From IMG/VR virus record IMGVR_UViG_2737471821_000008: 16,452 nt of DNA. One strand, written 5' to 3'. Every line of letters starts with the position of its first letter. The first letter of the stretch is position 1. Positions 1 through 15,888 of the stretch are shown in pieces. The stretch is from a virus (taxonomy: Duplodnaviria > Heunggongvirae > Uroviricota > Caudoviricetes). The notes below the pieces were generated by a model. The model did no database searches. It was not told where the DNA came from and was given only the letters and a program-made list of their open reading frames with translations. Both the position numbers and the translations under genes were made by a program.

Positions 1-405
1 ATGGATCAGGTCGTTGTTTTTCAAAAGATGTTTGAGCAAGTGAGAAAAGAGCAAAACTTCTCCTGGTTTTATTCAGAATTAAAACATCACCGTATTGCAC
101 ATTACATTTATTATCTGGCTACGGATAACATCAGAATTATTACTCACGATGATACGGTTTTGTTATTAAGAGGAACCAGGAACCTGTTAAAAGTTAGTAC
201 GACCAAGAACCCTGCTAAAATAAAAGAGGCCGCATTGCTTCATATTTGCGGAAAATCTACATTTCGGGAATACTGTTCAACACTGGCAGGCGCGGGCGTT
301 TTCCGGTGGGTTACTGATGTTAATCATAACAAACGCAGTTACTACGCCATTGATAATACGCTTTTATATATTGAAGATGTAGAAAATAATAAACCATTAA
401 TCTAG
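1..405 (+). CDS. ycgX: DUF1398-family protein YcgX (chromosomal flank outside the prophage)
   Basis: Complete 134-aa ORF with ATG at position 1. I recognise the sequence as YcgX, and it sits next to iraM as in E. coli K-12. AT-rich. Confidence 0.6.
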   Translation: MDQVVVFQKMFEQVRKEQNFSWFYSELKHHRIAHYIYYLATDNIRIITHDDTVLLLRGTRNLLKVSTTKNPAKIKEAALLHICGKSTFREYCSTLAGAGVFRWVTDVNHNKRSYYAIDNTLLYIEDVENNKPLI

Positions 406-616
406 CTAAAGTTGGATACTTAAGAAATGCTTCATAATTCAGTAAGGCATTAGCATAATGGAAATAAAAGTGCAGAGACTATCTCTATGGATGATTAATA
501 CTGTCTTTTTATTGTCACCCATAAATAATCACCAGACTAATACTATCAACTTGATATTTGAAATGTGATCACTTGACTTTTGATACGTTATTTTATAACG
601 GTTAACATATTTATAA

Positions 617-662
617 AAACAACGGCCGTGCCACACGTCCGTTTCAATACTTAACGCACATG
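617..662 (+). repeat. Direct repeat copy 1 of an icd 3'UTR/terminator-like ~45-bp sequence
   Basis: By hand alignment 38 of 45 positions match 1481..1525 (aaacaacggNcgtg...ccgtttcaataNttaacNcacatg). No icd coding sequence follows this copy. Confidence 0.6.
621..643. terminator. Imperfect hairpin within repeat copy 1 (possible ycgX terminator)
   Basis: Arms AACGG/CCGTT plus CGTG/CACG with one mismatch and a CCA loop, followed by TTTCAATA. Weaker than copy 2. Confidence 0.35.
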
Positions 663-1104
663 TATTTTGGTTTAGTCATCATCCGGTTATATGTATTTTA
701 GCCAGGAACAGGTTAAATCATTCCTATATAACTCAAAAATTGAAACCTTATTCTCATGTCATGCTTATATTCATTATTATCGTTATATAAAAAGGCAACC
801 ATAATGTTTAGCAAATTGGCACAAAGTAGCATAAAGGCTATGTTTTAATTACAGGATGTTCAGTCATTTGAATGTATAACATTATAGCTAAACAAATCTA
901 AAACGAAGTCAATAATTTATTGCTTTCACAAAATCTCATTTTGTTTAACATCCATTGAGATTCCTTGCTTTAAATTTTATTTTATATAAGCCATCATTTT
1001 AATTAATTTATTTTTTTGAGGGGGGGGTAATATACTCATATGCAAAATCAAGAAATAAACATCCTAATGAACCATATTAAATACCGTGGGATAAGACATA
1101 ACAA

Positions 1105-1428
1105 ATGAAGTGGATAGTAATTGACACGGTAATTCAACCTACATGTGGTATATCTTTTTCAGCCATATGGGGTAATATGAAAATGATCATCTGGTATCAA
1201 TCTACTATATTTCTCCCTCCTGGCAGTATATTTACACCGGTTAAGTCTGGTATTATCCTTAAGGATAAAGAATATCCTATTACTATTTATCACATCGCAC
1301 CATTCAACAAGGATTTATGGAGTTTACTCAAAAGCAGTCAAGAGTGTCCTCCAGGAGAAAGCAAAATAACAAATAAATGTTTACATAATAGTTGCATTAT
1401 AAAAATATGCCCATATGGGCTCAAGTAA
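1105..1428 (+). CDS. iraM: Anti-adaptor protein IraM (stabilises RpoS by inhibiting RssB)
   Basis: 107-aa ORF with ATG start, [22 protein letters not shown]..., recognised as IraM. Lies between ycgX and the icd fragment as in K-12. AT-rich, about 38% GC on a sampled line. Confidence 0.7.
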
Positions 1429-1480
1429 TGGGCTTCATATAAATATGCTCGATATGCTATTAATAATATCCACATAAATA

Positions 1481-1525
1481 AAACAACGGGCGTGTTATAC
1501 GCCCGTTTCAATATTTAACACATGG
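1481..1525 (+). repeat. Direct repeat copy 2 (authentic icd 3'UTR and terminator)
   Basis: Immediately 3' of the icd stop codon (1531..1533 on the - strand). Pairs with 617..662. Confidence 0.6.
1485..1507. terminator. Bidirectional rho-independent terminator (icd terminator; also downstream of iraM)
   Basis: Stem AACGGGCGT / ACGCCCGTT with loop GTTAT. On the - strand it is followed by GTTTTATTTAT (U-tract), on the + strand by TTCAATATTT. Confidence 0.6.
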
Positions 1526-1530
1526 AGAGA

Positions 1531-1695
1531 TTACATGTTTTCGATGATCGCTTCACCAAACTCTGAACATTTCAGCAGCTTAGCGCCTTCCATCAGACGT
1601 TCGAAGTCATAAGTTACGGTCTTGGCATTGATTGCGCCTTCCATACCTTTAACAATCAGGTCAGCCGCTTCAGTCCAACCCATATGGCGCAGCAT
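1531..1695 (-). pseudogene. icdC: Displaced 3' fragment of isocitrate dehydrogenase gene (icdC-type), prophage attachment junction
   Basis: The - strand translates to [54 protein letters not shown], the Icd C-terminus. icd similarity ends abruptly at about 1695. No start codon or upstream icd sequence. Confidence 0.85.
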
Positions 1696-1928
1696 TAGTT
1701 AGATGACTAAATCATAACTATTTGACATAGCAACATAATTTTACTAATTTGCATATAACTCATTAGCTCTTAGCATTTCTATAACTCATTGATTATAAAC
1801 ATGTGTTTTTGAGTTTTGATAACCATTTTTAGCATAAAAATAGCTGTTAACATTTGCAGAAATTAAGATCAGAGAAAATTTTTACCCTGTAGGGTATTAC
1901 GTCTTAAATGTGACTTTAATAAACAATT

Positions 1929-2762
1929 TTATTTCTGTAATCGGTTTATATTAACGTAAAGCATCTCGATTAGTTCTTTTGCATTTTTACTATAGTGTAA
2001 TTCTCTATGACAATTCGGACAAAGGGCAACACAGTTATCTGTTGTATCAGCACCACCTGAAGACAGGGGAATTACATGATGCACTTCCAAATATGGGTTT
2101 CCATCATTTAAATAAAACGGAGCATTTTTACCACAGTTTTCACATATACCTTTACTTTGCTGTAAAATCCAAGCTTTTACCATCGGGTCTCGAACATAAA
2201 CTTTTTGTAGTCTTTCTACCTCAACTGGTTTCCTGGAGCCCTCGGGTTGACTCAACGTTTTCTTAATTAATTTACTAACCCTCATATTCAGAAGCGATTC
2301 ATCATCTGTAGGCTGTGAAAGCTCTGATAGTTCTCCACGTATTATAGACGCCCAAAAACTGTCACTATAAATTCCTGGAACATTTATCAATATTCGTTTC
2401 GTTCTATTGCCGGAAGGAATTTCCTTTCTCCCCGTACGACTAAAATAAGCCTGATAACCACACATCTTCAAGCGTATATCGCGGGGGCTATTACCAATCA
2501 AAGTAAAATATTCACCAGGATGGATTTTTCTTTCATCCAAAGAATGCATATGTTTTCTGACTGATGATGACGCCAGATATACTACGACTTGGGATACACC
2601 AGAATCAACCAACCGTTCAATGATATAATCAAGAGCGATATTGTAATCTTTGTTTCTGTCACCCGGCCCCCACGACTCAAGGATTAGACCATAAACACCA
2701 TCCTCTTCACCTATCGAGCACTCAGCTTTCAGTTCAATTCCATTATTATCAAAAACATGCAT
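1929..2762 (-). CDS. mcrA: 5-methylcytosine-specific restriction endonuclease McrA (HNH family)
   Basis: 277-aa ORF with ATG start. C-terminal HNH motif ...CENCGKNAPFYLNDGNPYLEVHHVIPLSSGGADTTDNCVALCPNCHRELH. Recognised as McrA. GC about 45% on sampled lines. Confidence 0.9.
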   Translation of the reverse strand: MHVFDNNGIELKAECSIGEEDGVYGLILESWGPGDRNKDYNIALDYIIERLVDSGVSQVVVYLASSSVRKHMHSLDERKIHPGEYFTLIGNSPRDIRLKMCGYQAYFSRTGRKEIPSGNRTKRILINVPGIYSDSFWASIIRGELSELSQPTDDESLLNMRVSKLIKKTLSQPEGSRKPVEVERLQKVYVRDPMVKAWILQQSKGICENCGKNAPFYLNDGNPYLEVHHVIPLSSGGADTTDNCVALCPNCHRELHYSKNAKELIEMLYVNINRLQK

Positions 2763-2868
2763 AATATTAATCTTTAATCAATTTTTCACGACAATACTAC
2801 TTTTATTGATAAAATTGCAACAAGTTGCTGTTGTTTTACTTTCTTTTGTACACAAAGTGTCTTTAACT

Positions 2869-3423
2869 TTATTTATCCTCTGCAGGAAACCTCTTATACA
2901 AAGTTGACACACCAACATCATAGATAATCGCCACCTTCTGGCGAGGAACTCCTGATGCAATTAATCGTCCGGCCTGTGCCCATTGTTCTGGTGTAAGTTT
3001 GGGACGACGTCCACCAATTCGCCCCTGTGCGCGAGCAGCTTCCAGTCCAGCTTTTGTTCGTTCAACAATCAGTTCACGCTCCATTTCAGCCAGGGCACCC
3101 ATCACATGAAAGAAAAAGCGTCCCATTGGTGTGCTGGTATCAATTGAATCCGTCAGACTACGAAAGTTGATGCCTCGTTCGCGCAACTCCTCCACCAACA
3201 CGACAAGATGCCGCATACTACGCCCCAGCCGATCCAGCTTCCAGACAACCAGAGTGTCACCTGCCGATAATGTCCTGAGCAGTTTTTTCAGTCCCGGCCT
3301 TTCGGACTTTGTGCCGCTTATCTTGTCTTCAAAAATCAGCTCGCATCCTGCACAGTTCAGCGCATTACGTTGTAGATCTGTGTTCTGGTCATTTGTTGAT
3401 ACGCGTACATAGCCAATAAGCAT
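2869..3423 (-). CDS. pinE: Serine DNA invertase Pin (Gin/Hin/Cin family)
   Basis: Start placed at the internal ATG giving MLIGYVRVSTNDQNTDLQRNAL... (184 aa), the typical invertase N-terminus with catalytic Ser in RVST. The ORF track begins 12 codons upstream at 3459. Confidence 0.9.
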   Translation of the reverse strand: MLIGYVRVSTNDQNTDLQRNALNCAGCELIFEDKISGTKSERPGLKKLLRTLSAGDTLVVWKLDRLGRSMRHLVVLVEELRERGINFRSLTDSIDTSTPMGRFFFHVMGALAEMERELIVERTKAGLEAARAQGRIGGRRPKLTPEQWAQAGRLIASGVPRQKVAIIYDVGVSTLYKRFPAEDK

Positions 3424-3477
3424 GGTAGCTCCCCCTGACAAAAGCAGGAATGATGCCATTTGCTCGTTATTTCTGCA

Positions 3478-3503
3478 TTTTCATAAACGTTGGTTTGGGA
3501 GAA
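3478..3503. repeat. Pin recombination (crossover) site, pin-proximal copy
   Basis: TTTTCATAAACG-TT-GGTTTGGGAGAA resembles the 26-bp gix/hix architecture. The inner half-site GGTTTGGGAGAA is a perfect inverted repeat of 5362..5373. Confidence 0.7.
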
Positions 3504-4022
3504 GGTGCTCCAGCTATTGGCGTTCCGTTCTTCTGGCCGTCCGCCGCAATGCCAAATACTGTAATCGACAGTTGGTCCAGTATGGTGTTTTTGAAGTTCA
3601 ACGGCGCGAAATTCTCTGCCACTGATTACCCTGTGCTGGCGAAAGTGTTTCCGGCGCTAGCATTACCTGACGCACGGGGTGATTTCATTCGTATCTGGGA
3701 TGATGGGCGCGGGATTGATGTCGGACGTACCCTACTTTCAGGGCAATCACACACAATTATGGATCATGCACACAATATGGAATTGTGGACGGGGGACGGG
3801 CTTGCCGCAGGAAGTGCACGGGAAGGAGTAAACCCAGGAATACTGGCTACATACGGTGACGGGGGAATAGTTAAAACGGACGAACCCGGTCTTAAGGTGC
3901 CTTCCTCACTACGAGCTCTTAGCTCTCGTAGTGTTAAACGTTATGGTGAAATTAGTGGAAATGTAGATACAGAAACCCGTCCACGAAATATTGCATTCAA
4001 CTTTCTGGTGAGGGCTAAATAA
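3491..4022 (+). pseudogene. stfE: Silent alternative tail-fibre C-terminal cassette (StfE-type variable domain), in-phase with the stfP constant region after inversion
   Basis: ORF 3450..4022 runs through the crossover site (…VGLGEGAP…) and ends …ETRPRNIAFNFLVRAK, a typical fibre C-terminus. The ATG at 3450 lies outside the segment and is not a real start. The core TT occupies codon positions 2 and 3 in both cassettes. Confidence 0.65.
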
Positions 4023-4615
4023 TGATACCTGTTTTTGATGAAAATGGGCTGGCTACAGTGCCGGGCGATATGCGTTGTTTTTATTATAATGCAGTAACGT
4101 ATGAATATACCGGCTGGTCTGATGAATATATTAATACTGGCGTAAGTATACCCGCCTGTTCCACTGGTATTGACCCGGGCGAAAACATCCCGGGAAAAGT
4201 GGCAGTATTTACGGGTAAGGGATGGAGCCATGAAGAAGACCATCGCAATGAGACCGTTTACTCAACTGAAAATGGCGCAGCTGTTACAGTGGATTATATC
4301 GGTGCCATCAAAGACGGTTATGTCACGCTTTCACCGTTAACGCCATACGATAAATGGGATGGTGAGAAATGGGTGACGGATACCGAGGCACAGCATAGCG
4401 CCGCAGTAGAAGCGGCAGAAGCACAGCGCCAGTCGCTGATTGATGCTGCAATGGCTTCCATCAGTCTGATTCAACTGAAATTACAGGCTGGGCGGAAGCT
4501 GACGCAGCCAGAAAACACCCGACTTAACGCTGTGCTGGATTACATTGACGCGGTGACGGCAACAGATACCAGCACAGCGCCGGATGTCATCTGGCCTGAA
4601 CTGCCGGAGGCGTAG
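4022..4615 (+). CDS. tfaE: Tail fibre assembly protein (alternative cassette partner)
   Basis: 197-aa ORF, ATG overlapping the cassette stop (TAATG). Tfa-family conserved C-terminus …TSTAPDVIWPELPEA. Confidence 0.8.
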   Translation: MIPVFDENGLATVPGDMRCFYYNAVTYEYTGWSDEYINTGVSIPACSTGIDPGENIPGKVAVFTGKGWSHEEDHRNETVYSTENGAAVTVDYIGAIKDGYVTLSPLTPYDKWDGEKWVTDTEAQHSAAVEAAEAQRQSLIDAAMASISLIQLKLQAGRKLTQPENTRLNAVLDYIDAVTATDTSTAPDVIWPELPEA

Positions 4616-5024
4616 GCCATTCAATATCTGGCGCACCGGAAGTATCGATCAGCTCCAGTGCGTCCAGATAATCCAGCCACAAATTATATTGCGCCAGTTC
4701 ATCACCTTTCAGACGACCAATAGCGGCTTTACCGGGCCATTGCTTACTGTTCATGTATTCGTTGGCCTGATTAAGCAATAATTGCCTTTCTGATTCTGCC
4801 TGTTGAATAAGTTCTTCATGTGATGGTGGAGGTATTAGTGCCCATGTGGGTAATCCATTTTTTCCTGCAACACGAATTTTGTCATCTGGAGGCGTATTGA
4901 TTGCAAATTCATTATAAACATCATCACTGACAGCCAGAGCATCATCTGGCCATGAATTTGCATTAATGTAATCATCCTTAAGTGCAGGATTCACAAAAAT
5001 GTTTAAAGATGGACTATAAAACAT
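4587..5024 (-). CDS. tfaP: Tail fibre assembly protein (expressed orientation)
   Basis: 145-aa ORF immediately after stfP (TAATATG junction). C-terminus …TSGAPDIEWPTPP is similar to TfaE. Its 3' end overlaps tfaE convergently over 4587..4615. Confidence 0.8.
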   Translation of the reverse strand: MFYSPSLNIFVNPALKDDYINANSWPDDALAVSDDVYNEFAINTPPDDKIRVAGKNGLPTWALIPPPSHEELIQQAESERQLLLNQANEYMNSKQWPGKAAIGRLKGDELAQYNLWLDYLDALELIDTSGAPDIEWPTPPAVQAR

Positions 5025-5025
5025 A

Positions 5026-5664
5026 TTACACCCCTATAGCGATATAACGACCTAATACAGCGTTTGCAGCAGTCGCTATGCTTGAAAAACCGCGGAACTG
5101 ATTTGATGTAATTGCAGAAGCCGACAGGATTCCTGCGCCTGAAGGTGTATGCCCCACATGACTAACTATCATTCCATAACATGCTGACGGAAAGGCAAAA
5201 GGAAAATCGTTAAGATATCCGGCATCTTCACCACCAGACCCACCAAATCTCGCCTGCCCCCACTGAATAATCAGTGTTCTCCGGGAACCTGAAATAATTA
5301 ACGGGATCGTTACATACCCATTCAGGCCAATGACACCCGATGCAGTGCCAGCCAGAGATAATTCTCCCAAACCAAGGTTTTCGAGAGCCGTTTTCACCGT
5401 GCCATCCGATTTGATATCGCCAAACGGATTCTTGCGGCTTAACAGCAGCGCACGAAGCGCGGTAAGCAGCTGGTCGTGCCGCCCCTTCTCCAGGCTGGCA
5501 CCGGATGCCTCCACCACGCTGCAAAGCTCCTCCTGCAACATGTCAAAGTAGTCATCATCCAGATCGGTGGCAGGCGTGCCGGTCTGGGGGTTACCACGGG
5601 TAAAACCGTTCTTACCCGCGCCGAACTTATCCTTCTGCGCGGTTTTCGTGTCTATACGATGCAT
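5026..5664 (-). CDS. stfP: Side tail fibre protein (constant N-terminus outside, variable C-terminus inside the invertible segment)
   Basis: 212-aa ORF with ATG start. N-terminus …GNPQTGTPATDLDDDYFDMLQEELCSVVEASG… is typical of phage fibres. The crossover site lies at codons …LENLGLGE. Confidence 0.8.
   Translation of the reverse strand: MHRIDTKTAQKDKFGAGKNGFTRGNPQTGTPATDLDDDYFDMLQEELCSVVEASGASLEKGRHDQLLTALRALLLSRKNPFGDIKSDGTVKTALENLGLGELSLAGTASGVIGLNGYVTIPLIISGSRRTLIIQWGQARFGGSGGEDAGYLNDFPFAFPSACYGMIVSHVGHTPSGAGILSASAITSNQFRGFSSIATAANAVLGRYIAIGV
5362..5387. repeat. Pin recombination (crossover) site, distal copy inside stfP
   Basis: TTCTCCCAAACC-AA-GGTTTTCGAGAG. Its reverse complement matches the 3478..3503 site. 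Confidence 0.7.
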
Positions 5665-5667
5665 GGA

Positions 5668-6252
5668 TTACTCCGGATATTTAAAAATTACGTAGGTATG
5701 CGACGGGCAGAGTTTGTTAAGCACACATTCGACAACTGTGTCGCCCCAGATACGCAGTGCGGAATCACAGGGATCGCCACATGTCATCCAGGTGGTGTTG
5801 GTGGCGGCTGGCATGTTGACCTGCCAGTAATACCGCCATTCAGGCGCGTTCACAGCGTCAGTACAGGCCGATGAGCAGGTGAACGTGCTTTTGTCGTATC
5901 GCTTGATGGTGGCATCTGGTCTGCCCAGGGCAGCAAGCTGTGCAAGATAAAAATCCTCGTTGATGCCGCCCGCCAGGTTAACCTTCGCATCCAGCCGTTG
6001 CTGACGCTGGCGAAGGGTCTGTGTCCCTGCGGGAATACATTCATCCGGCAGACCGCACAGACGCTCCCAGCGGTTTATCAGTTCAGTGGTGGTGCGCGGA
6101 TCCAGCTCCCGCATCAGGGCATCCGCACGCTGATGAACGCGGGTTAATGACGGTGCCGCACCGGCAATCGCCGGATCGCTGGCTGACCACGCCGGACCGG
6201 GGGGCAACAGTGCTGACAACAGACGGATGTAATCATCGTTTGTCACGTCCAT
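5668..6252 (-). CDS. ymfQ: Phage tail/baseplate protein YmfQ (DUF2313, Mu gp48-like)
   Basis: 194-aa ORF with ATG start, directly upstream of the fibre gene and overlapping the baseplate-J gene end. Recognised as YmfQ. Confidence 0.7.
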
Positions 6253-7301
6253 GAAATCGTCCCCAGTACCGCCAGTTCATTTTTTGCAATGGAGATATTG
6301 TCTGCCGGTGCAAGCAACTGATGGCTGTATTCCCCGTTCGCACCGGAAATCGCCTCACTGATACGCGATACCTTCAGTTCTCCCTGCGGATAACCATCAC
6401 GCAGCAGGAACGAACGCAACTCCGCGGTGATGGCAGCCCGTATTTCCGGTGTGTCCGGCGTCACACGGATATGAAAATCCACCGTATGTGCCACCGGCCT
6501 GAACACATACAAATCAGAGCCTGCCACCGGGGCCAGTGGCTCGATATGTTGTCTTGCCGCCGTTTCCGTTGATTCTTCCGGAATGGGATTAATCAGGTCA
6601 CTGCTGGCAATCATCACACCGACAGTTCCCGTTCCCATCCAGTGACGGTATGTCCATGCGCGGGTAATGCCGGGCACTTCTTTAGCCCAGACAACATAGT
6701 CCCCGTCAGCCCCGCCCTGCGGCGTCCAGTAATACCGCTCAATGACGCGGGCGCGCCACGTTTCCAGCTCTTCAGTATCAAATCCGCCTGTCAGGGTGTC
6801 AGCCACACCGGAAGACGGCAGACCATTCACCGGCGTGACCAGGATTAATGCCGTACCGTCGTCAGCATTACCGACCGCACCTGCACTTGAGCAGGCGATC
6901 GGCACGCGCAGGACACCACCGGAGCTGGTTGCATCGTCAGTTGTCGTGTACTGCACCAGGTCATCGCGCTGAATAACACTCCCGGCGGTCACCTTCAGGC
7001 CATCGCTGACACCTTCCCAGCGCATATACCCACTGGCAACCGTGGCTCCCTTGCGCGGACACCGTTTCATCGCAGCATGTCGCGCCAGCCAGGACTCATC
7101 GCACAGGTCAGGCAGCATGTTCATTGCCAGATAATCGATGTAACCGTAAACCGTATGCAGCGCCGCCGCATACACCTTTGCCCGCACGTCTTCATCCATG
7201 CGCCGGAGCGTGTCGCTGACGTCCAGCCTGGCGAATAAATCGTTACGGAGCATACTGATATTTTCTGCCAGCGTCGGGCGCTGAAATTCACTGTCCGCCA
7301 T
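6243..7301 (-). CDS. jayE: Baseplate J-like protein (Mu gp47 / P2 gpJ family)
   Basis: 352-aa ORF with ATG start. Position and size fit the baseplate wedge protein that precedes gp48-like and fibre genes. The symbol follows e14 nomenclature from memory. Confidence 0.7.
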
Positions 7302-7602
7302 GCGTTATCGCACTCCACAGATCATCAAAAGAAATCATTACCGGTCCGTCACGACGCCAGAGGGTGATACTGTTACCCAGTTCATTAATCCCGGTGCGGC
7401 GGATATCCAGATCAATACGGGACACCACGCCGTCATCAATCATCCATTGCAGGCATTCGCGGATACCCGCCCCGGCAGCGCCCAGAGCAAGGCTGGAGAC
7501 TTCTTTCTGAAACCCCTTAAGCTGACGCTGCATACCTTTAAGCGGGCCGGACAGCCTGTCAACGGCGGTGATGATGGCTTTCAGCTGAAAATTATCAGCC
7601 AT
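7288..7602 (-). CDS. Short chimeric ORF: tape-measure-like N-terminus joined to an unrelated C-terminus (probable deletion product)
   Basis: Strong SD (GAGGAG, 7-nt spacer) and ATG. N-terminus MADNFQLKAIITAVDRLSGPLKG fits the usual tape-measure start, but the ORF is only 104 aa and its end overlaps the baseplate-J start. Confidence 0.4.
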   Translation of the reverse strand: MADNFQLKAIITAVDRLSGPLKGMQRQLKGFQKEVSSLALGAAGAGIRECLQWMIDDGVVSRIDLDIRRTGINELGNSITLWRRDGPVMISFDDLWSAITHGGQ

Positions 7603-8010
7603 GCTTCATCTCCTCATTTATACGGACGGCCTCTGCCTCCAGATCAGCAAAGTGGGAAATAGCCGTCCGGCGAAGTTCAAGGGGGTTTAATTTCCAGAAC
7701 CACGCGACATTGTAGAATCGCTTCCGGAGGTCTCTTCCGTCTCCAAGCCGGTAAAAAAACGCATTACAATCATGCCTGCCTTGAAAATATCCAGCTTCGT
7801 CATCTGCGCTGCAGACGAGCGCGGGATCCCGGCCAGAAGCGGGATATATTTCAGCGCTACCTGACTGTCCATTTTCATACCACCATCAGGTGAAACAGAG
7901 AAAGGGAACCCCAGCGCCTCAATCTCGTCATACGTAGGCTCACGTATTTCCAGCACATGCAGTGTTTCTTTGTGGGCGATGATCGGTTTTTTAAGTACAA
8001 GCTCAATCAC
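7595..8010 (-). CDS. Tail assembly chaperone, long form made by -1 programmed frameshift (G/GT or E/E' type)
   Basis: From the slippery site the -1 frame stays open for 52 codons (YRLGDGRDLRKRF…EEMKHG*) and stops at 7595..7597, just inside the next gene start. This is the standard chaperone to tape-measure layout. Confidence 0.45.
7687..8010 (-). CDS. Tail assembly chaperone, short form
   Basis: 107-aa ORF. Its first codon is GTG, overlapping the tube gene stop (GTGA). Sits between the tube and tape-measure positions. Confidence 0.5.
   Translation of the reverse strand: MIELVLKKPIIAHKETLHVLEIREPTYDEIEALGFPFSVSPDGGMKMDSQVALKYIPLLAGIPRSSAAQMTKLDIFKAGMIVMRFFTGLETEETSGSDSTMSRGSGN
7753..7759 (-). 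other. Slippery heptamer U-UUU-UUU for -1 ribosomal frameshifting
   Basis: Coding strand CGT TTT TTT ACC (R F F T) in the chaperone 0-frame, 22 codons before its stop. Confidence 0.45.
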
Positions 8011-10789: not shown

Positions 10790-11110
10790 TCACCAGAGAT
10801 CATCCGGTTCGCGCAGACCGTCTTCACGGCCTTTACGCAGGAAGCCCACAAACGCCTCTTTATGCTCGGTGGCCAGTTTATTTTGCGCTCCACCAGCCGG
10901 ACGTTTCAGCTCAAGCAGCTCTTTTTCAAGGTCGCTTTTGAGATTTTCCAGCTCGCTGAGTTTCCCGTTCAGGGTTTCCACCTGCCCGGCAAGCTTGCCT
11001 TTTTCCTGCTCAATCGCATCCACGCGCTTGTCGTTCTTTGCTTTGAAGTCGTCAAACTTCTGCTGCAGCTCCTGCGCGACCTGTTCGACATCTTTAATAT
11101 CAACCGCCAT
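10790..11110 (-). pseudogene. Major capsid protein, N-terminal fragment only (HK97-type delta domain)
   Basis: Strong SD (AGGAGA) and ATG right after the protease gene. 106 aa of coiled coil (…VETLNGKLSELENLKSDLEKELLELK…EHKEAFVGFLRKG) then a premature stop. No capsid body is encoded downstream in any frame. Confidence 0.55.
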
Positions 11111-11124
11111 CGTATTTCTCCTGA

Positions 11125-11775
11125 TTAGAAGTTCAGATTTTTCAGTGCATTCAGTGCAGAGCCCACATCCTCAGCGTCGCGCAGGGACAGTGCGCCATAG
11201 CCCCCGGCCATGAATGCTTTGGCCTGGGTACGGGAGAGTCCGACATCACGCAGGACTCTTTCGATTTTTTTCTGTTCGGGGATTTCCCCGCGGGCCAGTG
11301 CGTTCTTGACGTCGCTGATCCGCGCCTCGTCGTTAGACGGGAACGTCACCAGGCTGACTTCCCAGAGGTCGATTTCTTTCAGCAGAAAGGCTTCTTTGCT
11401 CCGGTCGTATTCCCAGTCTTTCAGGACGTACCCAATAGAAAGGCCGGTTAACGAACCGGCCTTCATGTGTGCATGTGCGCGTTTTGCGAGGGGATCATCA
11501 TCAATAAGCAACCGTCCCCTGACGTAAAGCCCGACATCGTCTTCCTTCATTTCGGTGTAAACACCGATGGGTTCATCCATGCGGTGCTGCCAGAGCAGCG
11601 CAGGTAACGCTTTTCTGTCACTCCACGCCCGCAGGGAAGCAGCAAATGCCCCGGACATCACCACATCATCGTGGCTGTCCTTTACACCAAAGACGGAGCC
11701 ATACCCTTCAAACTCACCGGAGTCACTGACAGATTTCAGACTCAGCGGTACATCAAGACGTTGTTTCGTCTGCAT
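11125..11775 (-). CDS. Prohead protease (HK97 family)
   Basis: Start placed at MQTKQRLDVPL… because SD AAGGA precedes it. The track's start at 11811 has no SD and overlaps the portal by 59 nt. Confidence 0.7.
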   Translation of the reverse strand: MQTKQRLDVPLSLKSVSDSGEFEGYGSVFGVKDSHDDVVMSGAFAASLRAWSDRKALPALLWQHRMDEPIGVYTEMKEDDVGLYVRGRLLIDDDPLAKRAHAHMKAGSLTGLSIGYVLKDWEYDRSKEAFLLKEIDLWEVSLVTFPSNDEARISDVKNALARGEIPEQKKIERVLRDVGLSRTQAKAFMAGGYGALSLRDAEDVGSALNALKNLNF

Positions 11776-12994
11776 TGGCGTTATCCTTCTGCTTACCGGC
11801 TTTACTGCCATCGGAGGGTTTCGTGGTCATGTTCATCGGTGTGAGATAGACATCACCACCGGGACGCGGATTCATATCTTCCAGGTCGCGGCAGTCATTG
11901 GGAGAGTAAATTCCCCAGTTGATCCCGGTGGCGTAGGCTTCAAAACGGGACTTCATATCCCCGCGCAGTAACGCCCCGGCGTTAAATTTGGCGTAATAAA
12001 CGCCCTGCTTACTTTTTCGTACCAGTCCGGTGTTGATCCGCTGTTCGATGCGGGTCAGATACGGCACCAGTGAATAGTTGATAAATCCCAGCCCCAGCTC
12101 TTCGATATTGTTGAAGGTGGCGCGATCGGTGTTCTGCACCATGTGCAACGGCACCCGGAACAGACGACAGATTTCTTCAAGCTGAAACTTGCGGGTTTCC
12201 AGGAACTGGCTGTCCTCGGCGTTCAGCGCCATCGACTTCCAGTCCAGCCCCATCTCAAGGATCATCGGGCGGTGAGCATTGCCAAGCCCGGTGTGACGCT
12301 CCTCAAAATCTTTCTTCAGGCGCTCATAAGCCTGATCTGACAGCGTCTGCTCTGTACGCAACACACCCGACGTCACCGCGCCATTGCTGAACAGTCTGGC
12401 CCCGTGCTCTTCGGTCGCAGCTGCCAGCGATATTGCCTCGCGGGCATAGGCGATGGGATTCAGCCCCACCAGTCCGTCCAGCGTCAGCGTGCGCACATGC
12501 CAGATATCCTCCTGGCTCAGTACATCCGTGGAGCCATCCGGGAATGTGACCTGATAGATCGGCTCCCAGCTACTGTTAAGCTTCGGTACCACACAGCCGG
12601 GATCGACAGGCAGCAGTTCAGCCACTTCGCCAAATGCTTTCACTTTGTAGGCGTAAAAGTTTCCCCGCAGGCACAGACAGGTGACCACCAGCTCCCAGAA
12701 CTCCTGCGGCGTCATATAGCCATTGGGATGCGTGGAGATCAGTTTATGCAGACGTTCGCCGGTGGCTCTCTGCTTCAGGCTGCCGTTCAGGTGATACAGA
12801 TTGCAGGGCAACATCCCGACCGACTCTGCCAGCACTCTGACGCAGGAAAAAACCGCCGTCAGTCGCATGGCCCGCTGACTGCTGATCTGCTTTCCGGTAT
12901 AGGTGTCGTAGGACAACCCGATGGCATCCGCCAGCTCTGCTGGCGTGGTCACCGGTGCGTCACTTTTTCGTTGAAATAATCCCGAAAAGAACAC
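11753..12994 (-). CDS. Portal protein (HK97 family)
   Basis: 413-aa ORF with GTG start preceded by GGAGG (6-nt spacer), overlapping the stop of the upstream small gene. Portal-family conservation throughout (…PIAYAREAISLAAATEEHGARLFSNGA…). Confidence 0.85.
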   Translation of the reverse strand: MFFSGLFQRKSDAPVTTPAELADAIGLSYDTYTGKQISSQRAMRLTAVFSCVRVLAESVGMLPCNLYHLNGSLKQRATGERLHKLISTHPNGYMTPQEFWELVVTCLCLRGNFYAYKVKAFGEVAELLPVDPGCVVPKLNSSWEPIYQVTFPDGSTDVLSQEDIWHVRTLTLDGLVGLNPIAYAREAISLAAATEEHGARLFSNGAVTSGVLRTEQTLSDQAYERLKKDFEERHTGLGNAHRPMILEMGLDWKSMALNAEDSQFLETRKFQLEEICRLFRVPLHMVQNTDRATFNNIEELGLGFINYSLVPYLTRIEQRINTGLVRKSKQGVYYAKFNAGALLRGDMKSRFEAYATGINWGIYSPNDCRDLEDMNPRPGGDVYLTPMNMTTKPSDGSKAGKQKDNANADETTS

Positions 12995-13176
12995 TATTTA
13001 CCTCCACCAACAGACAGCTGTGTACGGTCGAGATATCGCGCTACCAGCCACGACCAGAACAGGCACAACGCCCCGGCAACAACAAACCCCGCCGGGGGAT
13101 AAATCAGCCAGGCACCATACGCCAGCAAAAGCGCCCCCAGCACGCCCACCAGAGGCGCGAGAATCAGCATGATCAT
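12994..13176 (-). CDS. ymfR: 60-aa predicted two-helix membrane protein between terminase and portal (YmfR-like)
   Basis: ATG with [67 protein letters not shown] has two hydrophobic stretches. Symbol from memory of e14 YmfR (60 aa). Confidence 0.5.
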
Positions 13177-13187
13177 AATTACCTCAG

Positions 13188-14921
13188 TTAAAGCGAGCGG
13201 ATCCCATAGGACTCAATGTGGTCAGACAGCGTGTCTTCTTTCTCGTACAGCATGGCTCTGCCAACCGCCATAATCAGCGCAACTGCACCGTCAATTTTGT
13301 TTTCCGCCTGCTCTTTGACGGGTTTCACCACATCATCGTTACCCGGAATGGTTTTGCCGACCACATTGCCGATACACCAGGTCATGATGGGATTGCCATC
13401 ATGATGAAAGCGCCCCGATTCAATTGCCGCTTCCAGCTCTTTCATCGGGTCGGACATGTTGGTGTAGTTCTGAATGATAGTGACGGGATTCAGGTCTTCA
13501 TCAGCAAGGTCATGTGACAACCCGGTCGCCCCGAAGGGGTCGATGGGTGACTCACTGACCGGGCTGATTTTGTTCGCCGCTTTGGCCTCCTCGAGGATGT
13601 AGCGATAATCCACCTCCGCACCATCGGTAACGGTCAGAACGCCCATTTCCACCCATTTCTGAAAGCGTTCGGCTGTCCGGCGATCTTCATTTTTCTCGAC
13701 GCTGTACACCGTGTCATACGGTACCCAGAAGCGCGGAGCCACACTGTAGTAATGCGTTTTACCGTCAATCTCGCGGGTATAAAGTCGCGCCATGCTGTTC
13801 ATATCCAGCTTACGCGCCAGGTCAAAGGCCAGAATGCACGGTTGCCCCTCGAACTGCTCAAGGGTCAGTGATTTATCCTCGCAGCTCTGCCAGCTCACCA
13901 GGTTGAAATACGCCGAACGCGCCGACACCCAGATATTGAGGTGTTTTGTTTTAAAGACGTTTGCCAGACGGGCGTTATTTTTCGCACGCTGCTGCTGACT
14001 TAACAAAAATTCGCGATAAACCGACACGCCAATATTCGGGTTAGCTTTTTCCAGCACCTGCGGGTCGGTCCAGTCATCGCCTTCGTCAACGGTATAGATG
14101 ATCCCGAACAGTTCATCGTTGGGTACCGAACCGTTGAGCATCTCGATAACTTCCCGCCGCTTGTCGTAGCACGGCCCCTCAATGTTGTACCCGGCGGTGG
14201 TGATGGCCCACATCAGTGGCTGACGTCGCGCGCCCATCCCGGTAAGCATCGTGGTATAAAGCGCATCGGTGGCGTGCTCGTGATATTCATCCACCACCGC
14301 ACAGTGGGGTGATGAACCATCACCGGGGTTACCGATCAGCGGTTCAAACCGCGCGCCATCCTCCGGACGGTTCATGTTTGAGGCGTTAACCTCAATCCCG
14401 AACGCTTCCGTCAGCATGGGTGTGCGTTTACACATCAGTCGCGCCGGGCGAAAGACTTCCCACGCCTGTTTCTCTGTCGTGGCACCGGAATACACTTCCG
14501 CGCCAAACTCGTTATCACAGGCAAAACAATACAGGGCAACACCGGCAGAGATTGCCGATTTGCCGTTCTTACGGGGGATTTCGGTATACACCTCCCTGAA
14601 GCGGCGCAGCCGGGAGCCTTTATTGACCCAGCCAAACGCACAGCAGATCACAAAGAGCTGCCACGGTTCCAGCGTGATGGGCATCCTCTTGAATGCCCAC
14701 TCCCCCTTGGTGTGTGGCAACAGCTGAATAAATTTCGCGGCCCGTTCAGCCAGGTCCTTGTCGAAGCGGTAACGAAACGACTTACTTTTTTCCGCCATCA
14801 GGTCATCAAGATGGCGCTGGCAGGCCTGAATCACAAACTGGCAGGCCACAATCTTTCCGCGCACGACATCACGGGCATACTGATTGGCAGCATTTACGTT
14901 GGGGTAAGATTTCCGGCTCAT
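13188..14921 (-). CDS. Terminase large subunit
   Basis: 577-aa ORF with ATG overlapping the TerS stop (ATGA). N-terminal ATPase region (…[18 protein letters not shown]…AVVDEYHEH…) and C-terminal nuclease domain. Confidence 0.9.
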
Positions 14922-15412
14922 GATTCGATGATTTTCAGAAACGGGTTAGTGGCTTTCTTCTGCCCCGCCAGGCCAATCAGACGCTGGCGGCTGCTGGGGT
15001 CGAGTCCGAGCATTGCCCCCGTGCTGCTCATCTCGGACTCCTGTTCTTTCTTGGCGGTCAGCTCCGGATTTTTGACCATGCCACCCATTGCACCGGTGAT
15101 GGTGTTGCCCTGTCTGGCAATATTTTTCACGGCACGCCGCCAGAACTCGTAGGCCACGCACCACCGCTCAAGCACCGCGAGGTCAGTCACGCACAGCAGG
15201 CCCTGACCGCAGAGTTCTTTGGTTGTCAGTTGCCACATGATCGTGGCGAGAGGGAGATCTTCTTCAGCGAACCACTCCGGTGGCTCAACACCTTTGATGG
15301 GCGTAAAAACAGGTTCATCTTTATTCAGGGCTCGCTTGCCGGGGTTTCCGGCCAGCGCCTTGCGCGCCGTTGGCTTGGGGCGACGCCCGGAACGCCCCGC
15401 CGTTCCAGCCAT
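14918..15412 (-). CDS. Terminase small subunit (P27 family)
   Basis: …[34 protein letters not shown]… is the P27-family signature. I chose the ATG at 15412 (SD AGGAG, 8-nt spacer) rather than the track's GTG at 15421. Confidence 0.7.
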
Positions 15413-15462
15413 ATGCGGCACTCCTGGTTAAATTTCATTTTTCGCGGGTATAAAAAAACGAT

Positions 15463-15537: not shown

Positions 15538-15888
15538 TTACTTAATCCGTTCACGGGCCGTCTTCGCCTTATGACACGGCCAGCACAGACTCTGCAGATT
15601 ACAGTCGGCATCAGTGCCGCCATGCGCTTTAGGGATGATGTGGTCAACAGTTTTCGCCTCACGCACCACACCAGCGCGCAGACATAACTGACATAAACCT
15701 TTGTCACGTTTCAGCACACGCGCGCGGATAACGTCCCACTTCGAACCGTAGCCGCGCTGATGACGGGATTGTCCTGGCTTGTATTGCTTCCAGCCTTCGC
15801 TTTTGTGGCTTTCGCAATAACCTGACGGGTCAGTGGTGGTACGGCGGCACCCGCGAACACGGCAGGCTTTTGGAGTTCGTGGTGGCAT
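15538..15888 (-). CDS. HNH endonuclease (packaging-associated)
   Basis: 116-aa ORF with ATG start, Cys-rich with the motif …DHIIPKAHGGTDADCNLQSLCWPCH…. Immediately upstream of TerS as in HK97-like packaging modules. Confidence 0.85.
   Translation of the reverse strand: MPPRTPKACRVRGCRRTTTDPSGYCESHKSEGWKQYKPGQSRHQRGYGSKWDVIRARVLKRDKGLCQLCLRAGVVREAKTVDHIIPKAHGGTDADCNLQSLCWPCHKAKTARERIK

Follow-up and report, generated by a model that had tools for sequence, protein, structure and literature searches.

The window analyzed here, a 16,452-nucleotide stretch of Caudoviricetes DNA (IMG/VR record IMGVR_UViG_2737471821_000008), carries on its minus strand, at 12994..13176, an open reading frame (ORF) of 60 codons with an ATG start and a TAG stop, situated between the genes for the terminase large subunit (TerL) and an HK97-family portal protein. 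Sequence comparison securely identifies this ORF as ymfR, a gene that is already catalogued and not new. Surveys of related loci reveal that a mini-protein of this kind, hydrophobic and with two transmembrane (TM) helices, is the usual occupant of the TerL–portal junction in this type of head module, and that its gene is nearly always translationally coupled to the portal gene.

To examine the junction at the species level, we collected one genome per species with a TerL 62 to 100% identical to that of the window, since a TerL scan of viral contigs had returned only near-identical Escherichia coli prophages. This yielded 77 loci with both TerL and portal. A hydrophobic two-TM ORF of 50 to 75 residues fills a TerL–portal gap of 130 to 230 nt in 57 of them (74%), and the other 20, with a gap of −9 to 78 nt, leave no room for a small ORF. 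Small hydrophobic ORFs occur at 4.8 per kb in the TerL–portal gap versus 0.09 per kb elsewhere in the same loci, a density about 50-fold higher. In 35 of the 57 loci, the start codon of the small ORF (ATG) and the TerL stop form a 4-nt overlap, and a portal start preceded by a Shine–Dalgarno (SD) sequence lies −11 to +3 nt from the small-ORF stop in 55 of 56 related loci.

The same arrangement recurs among 20 phages sampled down a ladder of TerL similarity, from 100% to 23% identity, 12 of which harbor a two-TM mini-ORF at the junction; their hosts belong to the Proteobacteria, Firmicutes, and Actinobacteria. Nine of the carriers are SfI, Burkholderia phi644-2 (gp3), Vibrio VaK, Vibrio K231, Pseudomonas D14C, E. 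coli vB_EcoS-640R1, Streptococcus thermophilus 7201 (ORF23), Enterococcus Ef5.4, and Gordonia Tayonia (gp3, a “membrane protein”). The GenBank records of Klebsiella ST846-OXA48phi9.1, Clostridium phiSM101, and Lactobacillus A2 show a 190- to 230-nt “intergenic” TerL–portal gap in which the two-TM ORF is present and unannotated (L085 ~4220–4399, L089 ~4299–4478, and L174 ~2311–2499, respectively). Nothing is found at the junction in six phages (Staphylococcus phiSa2wa_st30, Paenibacillus HB10c2, Bacillus J5a, HK97-like mEpX2, Streptomyces Rowa, and Streptococcus Javan499), and two carry other cargo, namely a hydrophilic 73-residue ORF in mycobacteriophage Phrux and a MazF toxin gene in Campylobacter CJIE4-3. 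The latter gene, annotated as MazF at L180 3039–3473, illustrates that the junction also accepts unrelated cargo.

A reverse survey, seeded with distant family members (alignment A3), returned 80 viral contigs. The portal start lies less than 400 nt downstream of the small ORF in 76 of these, and the end of TerL lies within 400 nt upstream in 60 and directly upstream in at least 57; three of the four contigs with no portal nearby are cut too short to tell, and the fourth (L184) had room. An initial annotation of the window, made without database searches, had considered a small hydrophobic protein an odd occupant of the terminase–portal junction and had suggested a conservation survey there. 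The position proves to be strongly conserved, so that the lack of conservation named as a possible refutation was not found, and the occupant is a catalogued protein of a type present in most of the prophages and phages sampled.

The identification as ymfR is supported at both the protein and DNA levels. The window protein is identical in 59 of 60 residues to YmfR of E. coli K-12 (b1150), encoded in the cryptic prophage e14, and an 801-nt query spanning the junction shows 100% identity to numerous E. coli chromosomes in which RefSeq annotates “ymfR: protein YmfR”; of 5426 complete E. coli genomes, 1597 match it. The K-12 gene sits likewise between a terminase fragment (aaaE) and a portal fragment (beeE). 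In PHROGs, residues 1 to 55 align with profile positions 3 to 57 of the 58 in phrog_502 (“membrane protein”) with E = 1.5e-27, and a Pfam scan yielded no family for YmfR. Homologues are annotated in phages SfI, SfII, ST64B, phiP27, and others, usually as “membrane protein” or “putative integral membrane protein,” and one is present but unannotated in the SfIV records. In ON470603, ON470584, ON470580, and PQ793804, the homologue is labeled “head-tail joining protein W,” which looks like a positional misannotation by analogy with lambda gpW. The gene for gpW, a head-tail joining protein, is a small gene between lambda A and B and thus shares with ymfR its relative position and a similar length; YmfR, in contrast, is a hydrophobic membrane hairpin with no gpW-family match in Pfam or PHROGs.

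The organization of the junction was read directly from the window sequence. The TerL gene (13188..14921, minus strand; 577 residues; phrog_9, E = 1.5e-197; PF03354 and PF20441) ends with a TAA stop at 13190–13188, and ymfR starts 11 nt beyond it. A GAGG SD sequence (13182..13185, minus strand) begins 2 nt after the TAA and is followed, after a 5-nt spacer, by the ymfR ATG at 13176. The gene ends in GGT GGA GGT AAA TAG, in which a GGAGG motif (13001..13005, minus strand), within codons 57 to 59, lies 6 nt ahead of the GTG start of the portal gene; this GTG (12994–12992) overlaps the TAG stop by 1 nt, the two sharing a G. The portal gene itself (11753..12994, minus strand; 413 residues; PF04860, E = 6e-108; phrog_12) has the same start in RefSeq, where the boundaries of both genes coincide with those given here. 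The ORF is a genuine protein-coding gene for a real small protein. With an SD sequence just past the TerL stop and a stop codon that overlaps the portal start, ymfR is positioned for translation with the late packaging and head operon, most likely in a form coupled to the portal, in agreement with the initial annotation, which had described both SD sequences and translation as part of the packaging operon.

The initial description of a 60-residue, two-helix hydrophobic protein is likewise borne out. The AlphaFold2 model (22-sequence alignment) consists of helices at residues 2 to 25 and 27 to 57 with a mean predicted local distance difference test (pLDDT) score of 75.7, and the grand average of hydropathy (GRAVY) is 1.29, computed for the identical protein of locus L092. 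Taken with alignment A1, the model delimits a TM helix 1 at residues 2 to 25 (13102..13173, minus strand), with invariant P8, G11, G14, L17, L18, G21, W23, and I25; a tight Y-P-P-A-G turn at residues 26 to 30 (13087..13101, minus strand), the signature of the family, with Y26, P27, and G30 invariant and P28 and A29 conserved at ≥90%; and a TM helix 2 at residues 31 to 48 (13033..13086, minus strand), with invariant G35, C38, L39, W41, and S42. A variable basic C-terminal tail follows at residues 49 to 60 (12997..13032, minus strand), which is predicted to be cytoplasmic. All charges of YmfR fall in this C-terminal region, as R47, D50, R51, and K60, with R47 lying in helix 2 just upstream of the tail proper. 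At least one Lys or Arg is present in the C-terminal tail of all 67 family members surveyed (mean 2.5), and the N-terminal end is weakly charged. By the positive-inside rule, the protein should therefore form a hairpin in the inner membrane with both ends cytoplasmic (N-in/C-in) and a minimal external loop, and the topology prediction called for by the initial annotation thus gives two helices in a predicted N-in/C-in hairpin.

Conservation is concentrated within the membrane. In an alignment of 22 homologues that share 58 to 90% identity with the window protein, 17 columns are invariant, comprising M1 and 16 positions in the helices and the YPPAG turn, and residues 50 to 57 vary freely; the conserved intramembrane positions are rich in small residues, Trp, and Pro, and the cytoplasmic tail is variable. 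The YPPAG motif is found again in distant members and takes the form N-R-P-T-G in Lactobacillus phage A2. A Gly-Gly near the C terminus is also conserved, but its codons contain the portal SD sequence (GGx GGA GGx), which explains the conservation better than a protein-level constraint. The ratio of nonsynonymous to synonymous substitution rates (dN/dS) is 0.10 to 0.19 in the least-diverged informative pairs (dS 0.1 to 1.3), with a median of 0.32 over all computable pairs, and these comparisons indicate that ymfR is under purifying selection at the peptide level. We also considered a DNA or RNA element behind the T-rich coding strand and rejected it, since the conservation is at the amino acid level and synonymous sites are near saturation. 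As a side observation, the ymfR of L099 4246–4461 (Shigella flexneri SFBU0723) is frameshifted after codon ~27 to give an aberrant 71-residue product, and database clusters P0136 and P0154 are truncated or frameshifted variants too.

Four independent clusters of 102 to 122 residues (P0153, P0165, P0174, and P0223) contain tandem-duplicated hairpins with four predicted TM helices, and these natural duplicates suggest that the hairpins work as oligomers. A sequence profile search of the PDB gave only an insignificant match to the glycophorin A TM segment (E = 0.72), and a Foldseek search of the AlphaFold2 model against viral structures recovered uncharacterized hairpins only, none at E ≤ 0.001, a result that the simple two-helix fold makes uninformative.

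The family is large and crosses phyla. A word-indexed search detected 167 homologues at E ≤ 0.01, with 58 to 100% identity among the matches listed, and an exhaustive profile search of 1.84 billion representatives detected 387 clusters (50% identity) at E ≤ 1e-3, the great majority between 45 and 110 residues in length. The members fall into several PHROGs: phrog_502 comprises YmfR, the Burkholderia type, and the Lactobacillus A2 ORF (E = 4e-17); phrog_7105 is a 53-residue enterobacterial and Pasteurellaceae type; phrog_4810 comprises the Pseudomonas type and Gordonia Tayonia gp3; phrog_1142, which corresponds to Pfam DUF1056 (PF06341), contains the Streptococcus and Clostridium members; and phrog_8943 contains the Enterococcus member. 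Two single PHROGs thus each clearly span Gram-negative and either Gram-positive or actinobacterial hosts. The profiles are connected by cross-hits, from phrog_7105 to phrog_502 at 8e-5, from the Burkholderia type to phrog_7105 at 2e-7, from A2 to phrog_1142 at 0.003, and from Ef5.4 to phrog_1142 at 8e-8 and to phrog_502 at 0.001, and these links make it likely that subtypes 502, 7105, 4810, 1142, and 8943 form one old superfamily.

DUF1056 proteins, found in Streptococcus, Clostridium, and Lactococcus-type phages, resemble YmfR in their length of ~59 residues, two-TM hairpin, and basic C-terminal end, and they occupy the same slot between TerL and portal, as ORF23 in S. thermophilus 7201 and as an unannotated ORF in Clostridium perfringens phiSM101. 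The link to YmfR is indirect, running through the PHROG cross-hits, and is compatible with either homology or convergence. ORF23 of 7201 passes the PF06341 gathering threshold (38.6 bits versus a cutoff of 22.2), and YmfR gives no match to PF06341 in a Pfam scan even at E ≤ 10. Scans of YmfR and five other subtypes against Pfam, NCBIfam, and PADLOC, down to E = 10, returned only noise except for DUF1056 with the Streptococcus member.

The gene is without the signature of a moron, that is, an own promoter and terminator, an anomalous guanine-cytosine (GC) content, and a sporadic distribution. A consensus scan restricted to sigma-70-type promoters detected no sigma-70-like site upstream of ymfR, and a crude scan of both strands found no promoter-like site within or adjacent to the gene, the nearest ones (13582–13609 on the plus strand and 13717–13689 on the minus strand) lying ~400 nt away inside TerL. 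Promoter-like sites around ymfR occur at chance level, as do terminator-like sites (five found versus 4.1 expected). Within codons 7 to 16 lies a GC-rich hairpin with a 12-bp stem followed by TTTTG (13131–13158, minus strand). The GC fraction is 0.54 to 0.58 across ymfR versus 0.50 to 0.62 in TerL and the portal gene. The distribution is not of the sporadic type either, with the same kind of protein in the majority of loci in both samples and unrelated cargo in only two of the 20 phages. In E. coli, ymfR is induced with other e14 genes under SOS-inducing conditions (PMC10012262).

What might such a protein do? The initial annotation had no function to assign, and a literature search on ymfR, phrog_502, DUF1056, and small membrane proteins combined with terminase or portal likewise turned up no functional work; mentions of ymfR were confined to lists of deletions, a single SOS transcriptome table, and its use as a neutral integration site. 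We tentatively propose, as a reading that is possible rather than probable, that YmfR is a nonessential, membrane-embedded accessory of head morphogenesis or packaging. The proposal is based on the fixed position next to the portal across phyla, the association of the gene with the portal where TerL and portal differ in ancestry, the conserved intramembrane Gly, Trp, and Pro residues, and the tandem duplicates. YmfR hairpins would oligomerize in the inner membrane and would give portal ring formation, prohead initiation, or a packaging step a membrane location, either directly or via cotranslational tethering of the late mRNA, in which case the coupled portal gene would be translated at the membrane. 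In its broader form, this proposal would make the YmfR-type hairpin an ancient part of the HK97/P27-type head-packaging module, embedded in the membrane and shared across bacterial phyla, a reading that we consider doubtful.

That the small gene stays with the portal is best seen in mosaic loci. In L094, L096–L098, L100, and L101, TerL is 86 to 91% identical to that of the window, the portal is only ~28% identical, and the small ORF is of the phrog_7105 subtype; this pattern, with TerL alike and both portal and small ORF different, places a sharp recombination joint at the 3' end of TerL, upstream of the small gene, which stays with the portal. Only these qualitative examples are used here. 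A closer quantitative association of small-ORF identity with the portal than with TerL was considered and set aside, as the two correlations are similar.

Two known systems provide partial models. In T4, the portal initiator gp20 is membrane-bound and has a helper, gp40 (PMC9958956). This resembles the role proposed for YmfR in that a phage-encoded helper is tied to portal assembly at the inner membrane, a parallel that serves as a conceptual model only. No sequence relationship between gp40 and YmfR is expected, gene 40 of T4 is not known to be adjacent to gene 20, and membrane-bound prohead initiation is so far documented only for T4 and not for HK97-type phages. In PRD1, P20 and P22 are very small integral membrane proteins tied to the packaging vertex and the packaging ATPase (PMC5850374). 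PRD1, however, has an internal membrane and belongs to another capsid and ATPase lineage, whereas the tailed phages considered here have no virion membrane.

Several observations weigh against a role for YmfR in head assembly or packaging. A system that reconstitutes HK97-type packaging was built from terminase proteins, procapsids containing portal, and cos DNA, and the abstract of that study lists no membrane component (PMC10359639). Contact with a soluble portal or terminase could be made only by the cytoplasmic tail of YmfR, a short segment with little conservation. The gene is dispensable in evolution, being absent from 20 of the 77 prophages and from six of the 20 phages, HK97-like mEpX2 included, and a Pseudomonas gingeri locus (L125) is without the small ORF, yet its portal is 89% identical to that of a carrier (L130). 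Loci without the gene were checked for a hairpin fused to TerL or portal, and neither these nor the top 150 profile matches contained one. Small-ORF identity tracks that of the portal (rho 0.47) about as well as that of TerL (rho 0.42), and adjacency and translational coupling alone could explain why the gene travels with the portal. Cross-hits among short hydrophobic profiles can, in addition, be partly compositional, and the literature search found no experiment on any family member.

The initial annotation had suggested a superinfection-exclusion, holin-like, or toxin-like peptide, suggestions that gained no positive support here; YmfR matches no holin, exclusion, or defense family and shows no moron signs. 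An exclusion role would be one form of a late host-membrane effector, in which the hairpin binds or blocks an inner-membrane component, as a superinfection-exclusion factor or a block to DNA entry like HK97 gp15 or T4 Imm, and the junction is simply a permissive insertion point. We consider this unlikely. In its favor, a small size, two TM helices, and intramembrane conservation are as expected for a partner of another membrane protein, the gene is dispensable, PHROGs places phrog_502 under “moron, auxiliary metabolic gene and host takeover,” and the MazF gene of CJIE4-3 and the hydrophilic ORF of Phrux demonstrate that the junction is able to hold cargo. HK97 gp15 and T4 Imm are small inner-membrane exclusion proteins of phages, with gp15 encoded among virion genes. 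Proteins of this type are encoded by morons or early genes, are expressed in lysogens or early, as exclusion genes typically are, and are lineage-restricted. In YmfR-type genes, by contrast, no own promoter was found and one position is conserved across phyla; with neither a promoter and terminator of its own nor a GC deviation detected, ymfR is probably expressed only with the late genes. Phages of Gram-negative, Gram-positive, and actinobacterial hosts all carry this type of protein in one and the same slot, which fits poorly with a target specific to a receptor or host, and the fixed portal-adjacent position in three phyla, the operon-internal expression, and the host-independent architecture together argue against receptor- or host-specific roles and against random cargo. 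Searches against defense families in PADLOC (E ≤ 1) and against exclusion-annotated PHROGs gave no match. The deletion of ymfR in K-12 is reported to be without phenotype, though phage sensitivity was not among the traits tested there (PMC9145139). The TerI packaging inhibitor of Listeria was also considered; going by its abstract and outline, it is no match, being a defense protein expressed in lysogens for which neither membrane character nor a TerL–portal position is stated.

A second alternative, that YmfR is a lysis-timing factor, is weaker and in our judgment quite improbable. Here, a holin-, pinholin-, or antiholin-like hairpin would build up in the membrane and modulate the firing of the canonical holin. 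Class II holins and pinholins, such as S68 of phage 21, are ~60 to 70 residues long, with two TM helices rich in small residues and a basic cytoplasmic C terminus, and are expressed late. YmfR shares their size, two TM helices, inside ends, basic C terminus, and Gly-rich helices, a likeness that is generic and not diagnostic; expression with the late genes and the oligomers suggested by the tandem duplicates also fit. But ymfR lies outside the lysis cassette, and an intact relative (L001) has a separate and complete cassette, with a lambda-family holin, an endolysin, and a spanin-type lysis protein, upstream of the HNH and terminase small subunit (TerS) genes. Neither Pfam nor PHROGs yields a holin family at E ≤ 0.1; the best hit is Phage_holin_3_6 at E = 0.2, and this for the Burkholderia member only. 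The separate cassette and this lack of a holin-family match argue against a primary role in lysis, and the portal-adjacent position is conserved even though lysis cassettes lie elsewhere.

We regard it as very unlikely that YmfR is a virion or ejection component, present in a few copies at the portal vertex or in the head and inserting into the recipient membrane to aid DNA entry. Its linkage and translational coupling to the portal, its independence of tail type (relatives of the window have a sheath, and other members occur in siphoviruses), and the distantly analogous precedent of the small membrane proteins at the PRD1 packaging vertex (PMC5850374) are consistent with such a role. A hairpin with a GRAVY of 1.3 and almost no soluble part would, however, be hard to carry in a capsid that has no membrane; the literature search found no virion-proteomics report, and the gene is dispensable in the context of an 89%-identical portal.

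Least probable of all, and only barely credible, is that the peptide is unimportant and the ORF serves as a translational-coupling device that sets portal relative to TerL translation, or encodes a peptide like the toxins of type I toxin–antitoxin systems. The near-universal overlap with the portal start, the SD sequence within the last codons, and a C-terminal Gly-Gly explained by that SD sequence rather than by the protein are set against conserved Gly, Pro, Trp, and Tyr positions and a dN/dS of 0.1 to 0.2 that indicate selection on the peptide, against the fact that a spacer need not be a two-TM hairpin in three phyla, against 20 of 77 loci that couple TerL straight to the portal with no small ORF, and, for the toxin, against the finding, in a crude scan, that no promoter-like site adjoins the ORF on either strand and that none was detected above chance.

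The remainder of the window places this copy of ymfR in a decaying prophage. Upstream in the same module lie the genes for a P27-family TerS (14918..15421, minus strand; 167 residues; PF05119, phrog_83) and an HNH endonuclease (15538..15888, minus strand; 116 residues; so annotated in a collinear RefSeq locus), and downstream of the portal lies an HK97-type prohead protease gene (11125..11811, minus strand; 228 residues; PF04586, phrog_80). The left part of the window (1–7301) matches the right end of K-12 e14 and its chromosomal flank, with 99% identity to the ycgX-iraM-icdC-mcrA-pinE region. It contains mcrA (1929–2762), the pinE invertase gene (2869–3459), an invertible region of tail-fiber and tail-fiber-assembly gene segments in opposite orientations (3450–5664), ymfQ, and an intact jayE-type baseplate gene. 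These matches indicate that the window is a less-decayed relative of e14 at the icd site. The two belong to the same prophage family and occupy the same icd/iraM chromosomal site; K-12 e14 has lost most of TerL and the portal gene, whereas the window retains intact HNH, TerS, TerL, portal, and protease genes but has a truncated capsid gene. No complete E. coli genome in the collection searched covers more than 90% of the window.

Two deletions mark the window prophage itself as defective. The major capsid gene (10790–11110, minus strand) is cut to its first 106 codons, with ~2.1 kb of the intact relatives replaced by 8 bp at the junction (~10801–10808). The missing stretch corresponds to L001 15693–17838 and takes in what remains of the capsid gene, a small ORF, the genes for the head-tail connector and head closure, and a portion of the gene after them. 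Because this capsid-to-head-closure stretch is absent, the prophage is almost certainly unable to make heads. The second inactivating deletion has produced a chimeric ORF of 104 residues (7288–7602, minus strand, and 7466–7981), in which the first ~39 codons of a tape-measure gene are joined to the C terminus of a baseplate (gp46-like) gene; ~5.5 kb relative to L001, encoding tape measure, DNA circularization, and baseplate proteins, is absent here.

The window alone is therefore of little import, since its gene differs hardly at all from the catalogued ymfR and lies in a defective e14-type prophage. More broadly, most phages with this head module, in hosts from E. coli to Lactobacillus and Gordonia, encode a two-helix membrane protein of 50 to 75 residues directly upstream of the portal, one that annotators often miss or mislabel as “gpW,” and the residual interest lies in the unexplained conservation of this portal-adjacent mini-protein across phyla. 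Should YmfR prove to be a lysis or exclusion factor, its fixed position would make it an unusual example of cargo tied to the portal gene. If it does connect the membrane with head assembly or packaging, the standard view of HK97-type assembly as a cytoplasmic process would have to be revised, and a large proportion of temperate tailed phages would carry out portal ring formation, prohead initiation, or DNA packaging in association with the membrane.

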